Positions 40,120 through 45,091 of a DNA stretch of 64,000 nucleotides are shown here, in pieces. Numbering within the stretch: the first letter of the stretch is position 1; each line of letters starts with the position of its first letter. Source of the stretch: Escherichia virus TH35; the sequence record MT446408.1; one strand, given 5' to 3'. Under the pieces are notes generated by a model. That model was not told the DNA's origin, made no database searches, and worked only from the letters and a program-made list of their open reading frames with translations. A program made the translations under genes and the position numbers.

Positions 40120-41040
40120 TTAGTTCAACTTAATTGCGGTGATCTGTCCGTAAACGGTAGATGTCAATGCGTCTGTGCATTGATAGTTTAGATACACGTT
40201 GCCAGGCGCGGCAAGAGTAATTATCTTTGTTGGAATATTGCCGCCGAAACGACCTGCAGCCCGAATGCCAGCAGACATCGTGAATGCATCATCCGTAATA
40301 TCTGAATTACTTGTTGACAATTTTACTGTAATTCCGGTATTCGCTTGAACTCCTTCTGTTGCTACAGTCAACTGACTTGCTGTCACAAGCCATTTCCCTG
40401 CAGGCAGGTTTAATGTTGCCAGATTCACCAGAGTTGTCGGAGGATTGCTTACACTATTGCTTGTGTTTTGCACATTGCTTGCAGCAGCATTAAGAACTCC
40501 AGAACCATCAATTGATAGTGTCGTTCCTACTTTTACGCCACCCAAGGTTGATGCTGATGCAATCGGTAACGAGTATTGAGTAACACTAATTGTACCGTCA
40601 CCTGCAACACTTATGCCACTTCCTATCTTGACGCCGCCGAGAATAGAAGCCGTTGCCGCTGGTAACGTGTATTGGTTGCCGCTGGATTTGACTACCTTAA
40701 CGGCGACAGCATTCTTGGAACCTCCAGACTCCATGCCTATAATCACTGCTTCTCCAAAAGCGATGGTGATTGTAGATGCAGTTAAACCAGTCTGCACGTC
40801 TGTTATGTTCATTTTGGGAACTGAAAGTGTCAGATTCGGCTTGCTGGTAGAATCGCCATCATTACCGATCATAAAGAATTGACCAACTGAATTGTATCCA
40901 GACGCCAATGGCGGACTCAATGGAACAATCAGGTTTTTATCGGATGTAAATTCTGAAACAATCGCCAAACCGTTAGCATATACAGCAGGCAATACTGGCG
41001 TTTGTCCAGATAGAGGAAACGTGCTGATTGGTATCGTCAT
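40120..41040 (-). CDS. fiber-like protein with tandem LGGVK repeats
   Basis: repeats YTLPAATASILGGVKIGSGISV / YSLPIASASTLGGVKVGTTLSI; start set at ATG 41040. Confidence 0.55.
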   Translation of the reverse strand: MTIPISTFPLSGQTPVLPAVYANGLAIVSEFTSDKNLIVPLSPPLASGYNSVGQFFMIGNDGDSTSKPNLTLSVPKMNITDVQTGLTASTITIAFGEAVIIGMESGGSKNAVAVKVVKSSGNQYTLPAATASILGGVKIGSGISVAGDGTISVTQYSLPIASASTLGGVKVGTTLSIDGSGVLNAAASNVQNTSNSVSNPPTTLVNLATLNLPAGKWLVTASQLTVATEGVQANTGITVKLSTSNSDITDDAFTMSAGIRAAGRFGGNIPTKIITLAAPGNVYLNYQCTDALTSTVYGQITAIKLN

Positions 41041-41047
41041 AATGACC

Positions 41048-41899
41048 TCAAATGATTGGTATTTTTCTGCACTTGCAGTGTATTGCCCATCCAGGAGGAC
41101 CGATGTCACCCTTTTTGAACTTCAATTCGCCGCCAACTTCCCATAGGCGCTTGTCATCAAGTTTGAATCTCATTCCGTCGACGTGTTCATGAGAGATTCG
41201 CGGCTCCTTTCCTGCTCCTGAGTGCGCCCACTCAAATTCTTCGACTCCATTCTGGCGCATCCTTTCATCGCTTAGAACGCAATACAATTTGCTTGTCTGG
41301 TCTTTAGCGATCAAGTCGACTCTCTTTGCAGAGAAGTGTTTTACGTTTCGCAATGCCGCCTGAATGCCTGACGTGCCTTGCTGGGCTGGGTCGGGAGAAG
41401 TCAGCGAAAGCATGACTGCTTCGTACACTCTGTTGTGAATATCCTCGCCGACCTTAGTCACTAGAGTCGTGTTAAACTTCTCGCTTGTTCTAAGAGTGTT
41501 CTCAACGAATTTGTTATATGTGGCCTTTGGCGCTTCTATGCCTGCGGACTTAAGGCTTGCGAATGTAGCAGAAGTGGCACCCTTTTCGACCGATTTGATA
41601 AAATCAGCGGCAATCTTCGACCCAACACGTGCAAACGCCTTTGCCCATTTCAGTTGCAGCCGTTTCATAAGGGTCTGGAATGTCGAATCAGCAGAGTCCT
41701 GCGCAAAAAACTTCTGCACCTGCTTCTTGTCAAGCCATTCTGAAATGCCTGCCTGATAGTCATCAATCATCGCATAGCAAAGACCTTTCATCTCACGACG
41801 GTAGGCCATCGCAATAGCGTTTGATGGGATTATCGGACTGCCGCGCCCGATTCTATCGGGTGAGCGGCGTTCACGTTTTTTCGAAGCTTTAAAAGCCAT
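41048..41899 (-). CDS. Mu F-like / SPP1 gp7-like minor head morphogenesis protein
   Basis: C-terminal ...WAIHCKCRKIPII (H-x-C-x-C) typical of Mu F family; directly follows portal; start at ATG 41899. Confidence 0.65.
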   Translation of the reverse strand: MAFKASKKRERRSPDRIGRGSPIIPSNAIAMAYRREMKGLCYAMIDDYQAGISEWLDKKQVQKFFAQDSADSTFQTLMKRLQLKWAKAFARVGSKIAADFIKSVEKGATSATFASLKSAGIEAPKATYNKFVENTLRTSEKFNTTLVTKVGEDIHNRVYEAVMLSLTSPDPAQQGTSGIQAALRNVKHFSAKRVDLIAKDQTSKLYCVLSDERMRQNGVEEFEWAHSGAGKEPRISHEHVDGMRFKLDDKRLWEVGGELKFKKGDIGPPGWAIHCKCRKIPII

Positions 41900-41900
41900 A

Positions 41901-44276
41901 TCAACCTTGCTTCGGTGAATTAGTAGGATTATTGAGTGCTCCGTATGCTTGAGAGCAATCACCCTTCAACCACTCCTTGAATGAGTTCACATCTAATTCG
42001 TGGATTGAGTCGAATCCGTTCCAACCGTTACCAAATGATGCTTGATAAGCTTCTTTCGCTTCTTCTGCTGAATCGAATCCAAGCATACACTTGTGTTCAT
42101 CAAACTCGCCAGAGTAGTTATCGTTTTGGTTCACGATAAAGACTTTCGGCGACTTCAGATTTGGACCCACAAAGCAGTCGACTTCATCACCGTCTGCGCC
42201 CTTGGTGCCCTTGATGAATCCGTAGTGGTGCGGCATCTTCACGGCCCATTCACCGTCAAGGCTGTTTCCTCTACGAATGCTGTTTCGCGGATTCTCAATG
42301 CCAAGAATCATTCCGTGCAACTTCATCTTAGGTAATGATGCTGCGTCCATTTTACCCACGTTGTGGCGTAAGTTGACGACGTGTCCTTTAACGCTTGGAA
42401 GGGTAGACGGTTGCACCGACCGTGAATCTTTTTGAGGGTCAAAATCCACATCCTGACCTTCTTTCAGGTAGTAATCCGCAATACCCTCCAGCCCTTCTTT
42501 CAACTGCGTTAGGACATCAACCTTATGGCTTGATTCATCATCGGTATCGTCCATGTTGATTTCGACAGGCGCTTTGTCAGGGTTTTCCGCCAACTCACCA
42601 CGCGCGGCACCCTCTGGCATAATACCTGTTTCGCTATAGAACTGGCCGCCCATCTTAACGACATCAGCTTTCGCCTGTTCAATATCGGCCTTACCTTGCA
42701 GGACTTCACCAGCAGACTTGCCAAGCAATGCCATATTCTCTGGAGACATCCCTGGGGTTTCTTCTGCCGCGTCTTCCGGCAGACGGTTGTAGCCGCTGTT
42801 TTTGTCGTCTTTGATGCGGTCGCGCTCTTCATCAGGAGAAATGACGCCAGCATCAATAAGAGTTTTGCCAGTGTTGGCTCGCTTATCATTGATTTCTGCA
42901 AGTTGAGTAGCAGTAAGTGAGCCAACTGGTTCCCATGCAACCTTAACATCGACATCCACCCCTTCTGATTTGAGAAGGATTTTGTAATGGCGGTCGAGAA
43001 TTTTTGTCAGGTCATGCTGCTGGCACGTTTCCAACTCTTCGTGATAGCTGACCATCTCGAATTCACCAGTGGCGTTAAAGCCTTTTGGCGAAGTCCCAAG
43101 CAGTTTGGTCGACGGAACTTTTGCGATTGCGGCCACAAGCTGGTACTGGTTCATGATGATGCTGTCGAAGTCTGACAAGTTGATGTCAAACTGGTCCATC
43201 TCTTCTTTTTGGCCAAGCACTTTGACTGCATAGTTGTCGCGGTACTTGATCCACATCATCAGACGTTCTGCAAAAGACCGCTCATTGGCAATAGCCTTGT
43301 CAACGTCGGTCCGCAGCGTCGTTGTACGCTTGGACATCGCCAGCAATGGCGCTTCGTTGGCGGTACGTTCAGCGGCATAGATGCGTTCATAAATCTGCTG
43401 AGTCAGAGGAATGCCGCCGTAAATATAAGTCGGCTTGAGAATATCAGCTGGCTCATCGTTGCGCAAGATTATGAGGTGGCTGCGATGATAACGTTGTCCG
43501 CTGATTACCCAATATTCTGGGTCATAGAAGTGCTGTGATGCAGGGTCTGCTGTGTTTTCAGACGTCAGAAACGGCATCATCCAATAAGGGTCAACCTGAA
43601 TGATTCCCTTATAAGACCCCTTTGTCACACCATCAATGTTAAAAGGCTTGCTGTAATATTCTGGGTCATCGCTACGCACATCAAATATGATGACGCGGAT
43701 ACCAAAAATATTTTTGAATCGTTCGGCTTCAACTAAGTGCTCTTTGATATTAAATTCTTTATCAATTTGCTTTAGGCGTTCGCTTGCCTGTACTGACAAT
43801 TCTGACTCAGAACTGGATTTGACTTCCCAGCCTTTACGGACTGCATCGCGGCCTACCATGGAACACGCTTTGTTCACCAGCCAGTGCTGCGCGATGATTG
43901 CGCAAGCTTGATAGCCGATGAATGACTGTGACAAATACCAGTTTTGAAGTTGAATAGGTACTGTGTATGGGTTGACCTGCCCTTCTGAACTGATGTTCTT
44001 CAAGGCATTATCCATAACTTTTTTGGATACTGTTGCGGAATCGACTGAACGACCTTTTATGATAGCAACACCGTCGCCATTAATATCAGGCTCATACAAA
44101 GGGAAGTCATCAACCGTTTTAAAGGTAGGTCGATTGCTTTCAGTCTTTTCCCAGCGTTGACCGCTGCCGCGCCTTTCAAGGCGTTCAAACGGTGCCAATG
44201 GGTCGCCTGGCGGCATCTCCGCTGGTTCGGCTTCTGGTTGCGTCTTCTCCCAGAGTTTTATGCCAAGAATTTTCAT
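41901..44276 (-). CDS. portal protein with C-terminal inorganic-pyrophosphatase-like domain
   Basis: 791 aa from ATG 44276 (AGGTGG RBS; track start 44309 is TTG); position between terminase and Mu F; C-terminal HHYGFIKGTKGADGDEVDCFV and DEHKCMLGF match family I PPase motifs. Confidence 0.6.
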   Translation of the reverse strand: MKILGIKLWEKTQPEAEPAEMPPGDPLAPFERLERRGSGQRWEKTESNRPTFKTVDDFPLYEPDINGDGVAIIKGRSVDSATVSKKVMDNALKNISSEGQVNPYTVPIQLQNWYLSQSFIGYQACAIIAQHWLVNKACSMVGRDAVRKGWEVKSSSESELSVQASERLKQIDKEFNIKEHLVEAERFKNIFGIRVIIFDVRSDDPEYYSKPFNIDGVTKGSYKGIIQVDPYWMMPFLTSENTADPASQHFYDPEYWVISGQRYHRSHLIILRNDEPADILKPTYIYGGIPLTQQIYERIYAAERTANEAPLLAMSKRTTTLRTDVDKAIANERSFAERLMMWIKYRDNYAVKVLGQKEEMDQFDINLSDFDSIIMNQYQLVAAIAKVPSTKLLGTSPKGFNATGEFEMVSYHEELETCQQHDLTKILDRHYKILLKSEGVDVDVKVAWEPVGSLTATQLAEINDKRANTGKTLIDAGVISPDEERDRIKDDKNSGYNRLPEDAAEETPGMSPENMALLGKSAGEVLQGKADIEQAKADVVKMGGQFYSETGIMPEGAARGELAENPDKAPVEINMDDTDDESSHKVDVLTQLKEGLEGIADYYLKEGQDVDFDPQKDSRSVQPSTLPSVKGHVVNLRHNVGKMDAASLPKMKLHGMILGIENPRNSIRRGNSLDGEWAVKMPHHYGFIKGTKGADGDEVDCFVGPNLKSPKVFIVNQNDNYSGEFDEHKCMLGFDSAEEAKEAYQASFGNGWNGFDSIHELDVNSFKEWLKGDCSQAYGALNNPTNSPKQG

Positions 44277-44438
44277 TGTTAACGCCACCTGACAGTGAAA
44301 GGGAATCAATCTATATTATAAATATTCATGTGTTTGTAAGCAAATGATATGTATGGTGATCATAAATAGTTCATAAAATATTTTGCTTTTGTATCATTTT
44401 GAGTTATATTTTAGTTAACCAAACGAAAGGAGATTGAA

Positions 44439-44855
44439 ATGAGCACAACAATTGTATTTGTCGTCTTGAATAAAGGCGAAGTCGTTAACGTATGTGAATA
44501 TGAAGAACTGGCAAAGGCCACTGCTGCGCGATACGAAGGTGCTATTATTGACCCGTGGATTTTAGATGCGCGCAACGTCTTGCAGGCGACTTTGGATGAG
44601 TGGTTGTTGGGCCGCAAGGTCTATCCAGTAGACAACATCGACTCAATTCAAGGTGAAACAGTATACTTTGAAGATGAATGCGTTCGCGGAATCGGCAAAT
44701 TTATGGGATTGTGCCCATCTTCATCCAAAAATAAATTCTATCGTATTCAAGTTGAAGAAAACGATATGTTTGATAAAGTCACGCGCTCGATTGTTCCTGG
44801 CGGCGGAACTCCAATCTTTATGGCAGAATCAGACATCAAGGGGATTATCAAATGA
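44439..44855 (+). CDS. hypothetical protein (138 aa), opposite-strand cassette
   Basis: AAAGGAG RBS; own promoter-like TTGCTT-16-TATATT upstream; no motif recognised. Confidence 0.5.
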   Translation: MSTTIVFVVLNKGEVVNVCEYEELAKATAARYEGAIIDPWILDARNVLQATLDEWLLGRKVYPVDNIDSIQGETVYFEDECVRGIGKFMGLCPSSSKNKFYRIQVEENDMFDKVTRSIVPGGGTPIFMAESDIKGIIK

Positions 44856-45091
44856 GAACTTTAACCGAACTCGATGTTTTGAAAGACGTTGCAGCCGCGC
44901 TGGGCGTTGAAGTCTCTGAAAAGTCGACACTGGGTGCTCTGCGTCGTGATTTACTCGAAGCCGTCGACCGCAACGATTTTGATCGTAAGTGTTTGCAAAA
45001 GAAGATTCGACAGGCAGTAAGGGCGGGTAAGCGATTCCGTGCCAGGTCGTTTGCCGCAAGAAAACTCGACCTTCAGCACGGAATGCTTTAA
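44852..45091 (+). CDS. hypothetical basic protein (79 aa)
   Basis: ATGA-coupled to 44439-44855; ends 3 nt before convergent terminase stop. Confidence 0.45.
   Translation: MRTLTELDVLKDVAAALGVEVSEKSTLGALRRDLLEAVDRNDFDRKCLQKKIRQAVRAGKRFRARSFAARKLDLQHGML

Follow-up and report, generated by a model that had tools for sequence, protein, structure and literature searches.

The portal gene of Escherichia virus TH35 encodes a two-part protein: a dodecamer-type phage portal to which, very probably, a domain of the InPase family (Pfam PF18823) is fused at the C-terminus, and this family is a hairpin-less offshoot of the family I (OB-fold) inorganic pyrophosphatases (PPases). The stretch analysed, hereafter the window, comprises 64,000 nucleotides of sequence record MT446408.1 and represents most of a Wifcevirus genome. 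Within it, the complete portal-InPase gene lies at 41901..44276 on the (-) strand and encodes 791 aa followed by a TGA stop codon at 41903-41901, as given by the list of open reading frames (ORFs) and by the annotation of related phages, and no stop codon occurs upstream of that TGA. The ORF itself extends over 41901..44309(-) and gives 802 aa if read from a TTG at 44309; reading from the ATG at 44276 gives 791 aa, and this ATG is the annotated start in phages Bas99, Bas98, WFC, FEC19, SP13 and vB_Eco4M-7, in which the orthologue also has 791 aa. The gene shares 99.5% nucleotide identity with its counterpart in Escherichia phage ECML-117 and 91-99% with those of 27 further E. coli and Shigella myoviruses, and at least 80% of its length is covered in 28 database records. 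In most genome records its product is labelled "hypothetical" or "minor head protein".

Profile searches divide the protein into three parts. The portal core (aa 122-468; 42873..43913, (-) strand) matches Pfam PF06381 (Phage_portal_3 / DUF1073) with an E value of 3e-88 (296 bits, above threshold) over model positions 1-353 of 357. The segment that follows (aa 469-648; 42333..42872, (-) strand) is conserved in its first part, the barrel-helix region, and continues as an acidic linker of about 120 aa and of variable length. The InPase domain (aa 649-771; 41964..42332, (-) strand), with its family I pyrophosphatase-like fold, matches PF18823 with an E value of 3e-46; it scores 157-160 bits where the cutoff is 26.8, and the match takes in model positions 12-135 of 135. 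Moreover, PHROG 4660 ("minor head protein") spans aa 16-777, so that the entire fusion corresponds to one established phage protein family, and the isolated C-terminus matches parts of giant PHROGs labelled DarB-like, endolysin or unknown. Identification as a portal is also borne out by the position of the gene between the large terminase gene and a MuF-like gene, and by its orthologues in phages Pa193 and E217, which form dodecameric portals. Within aa 469-648, a motif SGYN-L...(G)-SPEN-(M/L/I)A is kept across five phage genera, and the modelled barrel of E217 and Pa193 ends soon after it.

The original prediction, made from the letters of the DNA and its translations, had described PPase motifs in the last ~170 aa of this ORF. 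Both motif strings are present: a direct reading of the sequence places KMPHHYGFIKGTKGADGDEVDCFV at aa 680-703 (42168-42239, (-) strand), close to the 42181-42240 first proposed, and NDNYSGEFDEHKCMLGF at aa 718-734 (42075-42125, (-) strand). The C-terminal domain is real, though its structured part amounts to about 123 aa only, the rest being linker and a 20-aa tail. Likewise, the assignment to PPases holds for a divergent family I fold with its Asp triad, which is recovered by the Pfam InPase profile, by the AlphaFold2 model and by fold searches, but not for the classical family, whose gathering score was missed. PF00719 gave only 18.0 and 20.4 bits (cutoff 23.5), in matches confined to aa 679-703. 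An alignment of profiles (hhalign) with E. coli Ppa covered no more than Y55-V73 (probability 90.8), and membership of the classical Ppa family was rejected.

Fusions of this kind have been known from computer analysis since 2017. Iyer, Burroughs, Anand, de Souza and Aravind (J Bacteriol; PMC5512222) defined InPase as a type I PPase lacking the beta-hairpin, reported portal-InPase fusions including BcepF1.124, and suggested that the domain is injected into the host, where it would act on a nucleotide-like substrate or clear pyrophosphate (PPi) in favour of early replication and transcription. The central idea of the original prediction, whose author was aware of no portal-PPase fusion, was thus right, but the 2017 work had preceded it on almost every point, the shorter N-terminal region included. 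The window gene is the Wifcevirus orthologue of these fusions and shows no essential difference from InPase as defined by Iyer et al.: it shares with this family, BcepF1.124 included, the full-length profile match, the shortened N-terminal region, the acidic residues, and the succession of portal and InPase within a myovirus head module. What is added here to the 2017 work is a structure model, an analysis of selection, an inferred topology in the capsid interior, and a re-reading of published proteomics that shows the domain in virions.

The predicted fold agrees with the profile assignment. The AlphaFold2 model of aa 640-791 (pLDDT 91, pTM 0.84) consists of a beta-barrel, OB-like as in PPases, followed by two helices. 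When this model was compared to the Protein Data Bank (PDB) with Foldseek, the top 50 matches were all family I PPases (best E value 1.5e-4, probability 1.0, TM score 0.46-0.52), which supports a distant but specific relationship to the PPase fold. From the candidate glutamate E661 to Y685 there are 24 residues, as compared to 35 from E20 to Y55 in E. coli Ppa; this confirms the shorter stretch between Glu and the YG/DGD block that had been noted at the outset, and is consistent with a deletion. The model nevertheless retains a short hairpin at aa 667-680.

Conservation within the family points to a retained metal site. Residues were compared in an alignment of aa 640-791 with 31 homologues from a metagenome protein search (32 sequences in all, the homologues being 32-57% identical to the query). 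Invariant in all 32 are Y685, G686, D700, G704, D726, E727, K729 and A740; G655, E661, R668, G675, W677 and D695 are conserved in at least 90% of them, and D697 is mostly D or E. The DGDEVD motif (aa 695-700; 42177..42194, (-) strand) is the predicted metal-binding Asp triad equivalent to D65/D67/D70 of E. coli Ppa in hhalign and HMMER alignments. A second acidic/Lys motif, D726-E727-H728-K729 (42090..42101, (-) strand), aligns through H. pylori PPase with the D102-x-K104 strand, and E661, in the IENPR strand (42294..42296, (-) strand), is the candidate equivalent of E20 by its strand order in the model. The acidic residues of the two-metal site, i.e. D700, D726, E727, E661, D695 and D697, are hence conserved. 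The segment DGDEVDC (aa 695-701) fits the classical PPase signature (PROSITE PS00387, D-[SGDN]-D-[PE]-[LIVMF]-D-[LIVMGAC]), with a strict fit in 15 of the 32 family members. The active site of E. coli Ppa is made up of about 14 residues (E20, K29, E31, R43, Y51, Y55, D65, D67, D70, D97, D102, K104, Y141 and K142), numbered on a Ppa sequence that reproduces textbook residue numbering. InPase lacks the full set: conserved candidate equivalents were found for E20, Y55, D65, D67, D70, D102 and K104, and in a tentative alignment K29 is possibly matched by R668 and Y141 mostly by Y743. InPase thus retains the acids of the two-metal core and, on this alignment, some of the shell that binds phosphate, but does without the residues by which Ppa holds its third and fourth metals and the phosphate that leaves. 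Such a pattern would fit an active hydrolase with a substrate possibly other than free PPi.

The fusion is both intact and maintained. It is unbroken in 28 Wifcevirus genomes, and the ORFs compared form a single uninterrupted frame in 11 genomes from 5 genera, i.e. seven independently sequenced ones of Wifcevirus and four of other genera, with orthologues of 757 aa in Serratia phage MTx, 765 aa in Pseudomonas phage JG024, 843 aa in Burkholderia phage WTB and 839 aa in Xylella phage MATE2, and the succession of MuF and head protease genes downstream of the portal gene is kept in the five genera. Within Wifcevirus, the whole gene has a dN/dS ratio of 0.014; the InPase domain, at 0.018, lies between the portal core (0.006) and the linker (0.021), and is under strong purifying selection. 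Between Wifcevirus and the Pseudomonas, Serratia, Burkholderia and Xylella phages, identity is 63-66% in the portal core and 55-63% in InPase, and drops to 27-35%, with many insertions and deletions, in aa 469-648. This is the pattern of two globular parts under constraint, with a flexible tether between them. Judged from these comparisons, the fusion appears to have been inherited vertically from the common ancestor of these phages.

The domain is also present in virus particles, as the original prediction had proposed. Necel et al. (2020; PMC7048862) analysed CsCl-purified virions of ECML-117 and vB_Eco4M-7 by liquid chromatography-tandem mass spectrometry (MS), and their supplementary tables contain 22 peptides for the ECML-117 portal protein, which we remapped onto the window protein. 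They extend from aa 12-32 to aa 772-789 and include five peptides from InPase, namely LHGMILGIENPR, MPHHYGFIK (174 spectra), GADGDEVDCFVGPNLK, VFIVNQNDNYSGEFDEHK and CMLGFDSAEEAK. The virion context of this InPase is evident in the module of terminase, portal, MuF and protease genes as well as in these peptides. Spectral counts for the portal protein (supplementary tables S2/S3 of PMC7048862) are led by linker and InPase peptides, with 172-174 peptide-spectrum matches for MPHHYGFIK and up to 135 for LHGMILGIENPR, and core peptides are rare; the excess may mean that a flexible region is digested more readily, or that there is a surplus of free C-terminal fragment.

Clues on the location of the domain within the particle come from the orthologous 765-aa portals (gp19) of the Pbunavirus phages E217 and Pa193, solved by cryo-electron microscopy (PMC10329688, PMC11456595). 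Residues 97-528 (E217) and 94-528 (Pa193) of 765 were built, and residues 529-765 are reported to be without density in the Pa193 paper; the pyrophosphatase domain is mentioned in neither. In both phages the C-terminal helical barrel is directed into the head, and in E217 it contacts DNA. InPase follows the barrel and the barrel faces the head, so that the capsid interior probably holds twelve copies of the domain, each on a linker of some 120 residues; by homology with these portals they would lie above the barrel, either disordered or off the C12 symmetry. The gp19 structure PDB 9B41 contains the homologous sequence (match with an E value of 3e-50), and was rejected as a solved InPase structure, residues 529-765 being unmodelled. 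The portals of E217 and Pa193 are about 65% identical to the window protein in the core and about 59% in InPase, and share the synteny with MuF and head protease genes; they differ from it in the length and sequence of the linker.

InPase domains are widespread in phages. Of 50,697 phage records searched with tblastn, 470 contain the domain (294 from Pseudomonas, 70 from Vibrio and 26 from Escherichia phages, with the remainder from others), and when 1.84 billion representative proteins were searched with a profile, 12,251 cluster representatives (50% identity) matched at E <= 1e-3. Among the 150 top-scoring matches listed, most exceed 1,000 aa and some reach about 6,000 aa. These large proteins are probably polyvalent phage proteins, and some very large multidomain ones indeed carry polyvalent-protein domains. 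Sampled architectures combine InPase with LPD38; with a 2H phosphoesterase; with 2H, LigD 3'-phosphoesterase and acylphosphatase domains; or with a tail lysozyme. In the four scanned architectures that have a second enzymatic domain, the partners include 2H phosphoesterases, LigD phosphoesterase, acylphosphatase and lysozyme, and the phosphoester chemistry among them hints at nucleotides or RNA ends as substrates of InPase. In three such proteins (P0130, 821 aa; P0062, 3063 aa; P0187, 851 aa), InPase is accompanied by 2H-SAK, LigD 3'-phosphoesterase, acylphosphatase, 2'-5' RNA ligase-like and tail lysozyme domains. A further protein (P0168, 742 aa) belongs to another portal family, PF04860 (Phage_portal), and likewise has InPase at its C-terminus, which suggests that the domain has been joined to portals more than once, probably independently. 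In Achromobacter phage CF418P1 (OQ817832.1, L015:123-8174), a 2,684-aa "putative portal" has InPase at aa 835-971 together with LPD3 and LPD38; no Pfam portal domain was detected in this giant polyvalent protein at E <= 0.001.

Stand-alone InPase genes encoding about 200 aa occur in mixed surroundings that include baseplate, glycosyltransferase, QueC/7-deazaguanine and nucleotide metabolism genes, and this context was set aside as a functional clue, being too mixed to decide. In one metagenomic phage-like contig (L004:6001-6669), such a gene adjoins QueC, amidotransferase and radical-SAM genes, a set typical of 7-deazaguanine-type DNA modification, and in Vibrio phage D493 (L016:5866-6474) it lies near genes for dCMP deaminase, PhoH and anaerobic ribonucleotide reductase. 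Both contexts are those of nucleotide metabolism rather than of the virion.

How might such a domain be used? The original prediction had offered an ejected effector or a part in packaging as possible roles. In the interpretation that we favour, to which we give just under an even chance, InPase would be a capsid-packaged, Mg2+-dependent phosphoanhydride hydrolase that serves the phage early in infection. The portal would be the encapsidation anchor of this small enzyme, whose moment would come as infection begins, once it is released from the portal and out with the DNA; another timing would have it act in the producing cell, before assembly. With PPi as the substrate, its removal would pull early nucleotidyl-transfer reactions forward. 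Alternatively, the substrate could be a nucleotide-like molecule containing a pyrophosphate, e.g. an alarmone or an immune signal.

Several observations weigh against this scheme of a packaged hydrolase. The alignments to PPases by profile or hidden Markov model are secure only for the block Y685-G686...D695-G-D697-E-V-D700 (E. coli Y55...D65, D67, D70), and residue equivalences beyond the Y55-D70 block are tentative, as they derive from sequence alignment and from the order of strands in the model. On this basis D719, the equivalent of D97, is variable, and the equivalents of E31, R43 and K142 appear to be so as well, which means that the substrate of InPase may not be PPi. In the literature searched, no measured enzymatic activity is on record for any PF18823 member, and the study of Iyer et al. 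is the only one on the family. Delivery raises a further difficulty: the portal stays in the capsid, and a linker of about 120 residues spans at most ~43 nm whereas the tail measures 107-120 nm, so that an uncleaved InPase on its tether presumably could not reach the cell, and the domain would have to be cut free. Yet peptides cover the linker almost continuously over aa 542-637, and non-tryptic peptide ends, sought in the published MS tables, were not found; all peptides are fully tryptic and give no sign of maturation cleavage or proteolytic release. The only stretches without peptide coverage are aa 530-541 and 638-652, and cleavage within these, or at Lys or Arg residues, may be compatible with the peptide data.

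A related scenario, which we regard as rather unlikely, retains delivery and changes the target. Here InPase would be an enzyme of anti-defence or host takeover, cut from the portal at maturation or ejection and entering ahead of or with the DNA, that destroys a pyrophosphate-containing signal or nucleotide and not PPi. Possible targets are alarmones, modified NTPs and immune messengers, whether derived from ADP-ribose or of another kind.

It is somewhat more doubtful that InPase is a catalytically dead PPase relic with a structural role in the head. It would remain attached to the portal as long as the particle exists, and may organise the last-packaged end of the DNA, sense headful pressure together with the barrel, or nucleate assembly of the procapsid and scaffold. 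The lack of semi-tryptic peptides and the continuous coverage of the linker are as expected for such a relic, as is a tether not long enough to extend down the tail to the host; in addition, conservation does not extend to several of the residues by which classical PPases bind PPi, and the domain adjoins the barrel, the part of the portal in contact with DNA in E217. The invariant residues, however, are precisely the metal-site acids and the Lys and Tyr of the PPase active site, and they are so in portal, giant polyvalent, lysozyme and stand-alone architectures alike. A role that is only structural and confined to the portal leaves unexplained why the same active-site residues are invariant in such different settings. 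InPase also occurs without a portal, in stand-alone phage proteins of about 200 aa.

We consider it improbable that the enzyme is active only in the producing cell, on free or assembling portals late in infection or in the procapsid, where it would clear PPi or a nucleotide by-product without ever being delivered. This would agree with the absence of evidence for cleavage, and with those stand-alone InPase genes that lie among QueC, dCMP deaminase and ribonucleotide reductase genes and not among virion genes. A structural protein present in 12 copies, however, is a poor supply route for a bulk metabolic enzyme, and the repeated fusion to portals, to MuF-neighbouring proteins and to proteins of the polyvalent virion type indicates that encapsidation is what selection has favoured. 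Moreover, E. coli possesses abundant Ppa, and terminase-driven packaging yields inorganic phosphate and not PPi. Finally, that the fusion is an artefact of annotation or sequencing (a missed stop or frameshift) or a recent, functionless cryptic fusion, as the original prediction had allowed, can be dismissed: we found no support for it beyond the "hypothetical" or "minor head protein" labels of many records, and it is refuted by the uninterrupted ORF across 11 genomes and 5 genera, by the low dN/dS of the domain, by peptides along the whole protein, on both sides of and across the junction, and by the experimental studies of the homologous 765-aa gp19 of Pa193 and E217.

Compared to the family I PPases (PF00719; e.g. 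E. coli Ppa, PDB 1INO, and M. tuberculosis Rv3628), InPase is shorter, at about 123 aa versus about 175, with the difference including the stretch from E to YG, and it is a tethered domain of a dodecameric portal, not a free hexamer. In coupling an enzyme module to a head component that is packaged with DNA, the portal-InPase fusion resembles Alt and the internal proteins of phage T4, the MuF-toxin fusions and DarB of phage P1, and PHROG matches indeed place InPase domains inside DarB-like giant proteins. It differs from T4 Alt, MuF-toxin and DarB in two ways. Experiments have demonstrated that the effectors of those systems are packaged, processed and ejected, whereas portal-InPase is known here from sequence and virion peptides; and unlike in those systems, the anchor of InPase, i.e. 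the portal, itself remains in the capsid.

The finding as such repeats Pfam and Iyer et al., and its interest rests on the biochemistry and fate of InPase in a phage group of practical importance. The domain is found in every Wifcevirus and Pbunavirus-type portal examined, including those of Pseudomonas phages used in therapy, and assigning a function to it would cover a widespread virion-borne module (the 12,251 cluster representatives above). Data on its activity would bear on the 2017 prediction that portals carry injected enzymes. If InPase were an anti-defence enzyme, the portal would be the delivery vehicle of a first-strike enzyme in a large therapeutic group (Pbunavirus and Wifcevirus).

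The gene lies in a head module of the usual kind, with genes for the large terminase, the portal, MuF, a head-fibre-like protein, a DUF2213 protease/scaffold and a cement protein. ARAGORN detected neither tRNA nor tmRNA genes in the window (1-64000). Between the large terminase and portal genes lie two small ORFs of 138 and 79 aa (44439-45091, (+) strand); the 138-aa ORF has no Pfam match, and both are kept as hypothetical proteins in the annotation of Bas99. On the other side, the MuF-like head-morphogenesis gene (41048..41899, (-) strand; PF04233) begins with an ATG at 41899, one base away from the TGA of the portal gene (TGAtATG, 41899-41903). This tight junction is annotated in all relatives and suggests translational coupling of portal and MuF. 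The MuF-like gene is followed by a 329-aa ORF (about 306 aa in relatives; 40120-41109, (-) strand) that matches the phi29 head-fibre family (PF11133, E value 1.6e-7), annotated as "tail fiber protein" in Bas99 though it lies inside the head module, and its product has been seen by MS in virions as the "unknown protein" vB_Eco4M-7_38.

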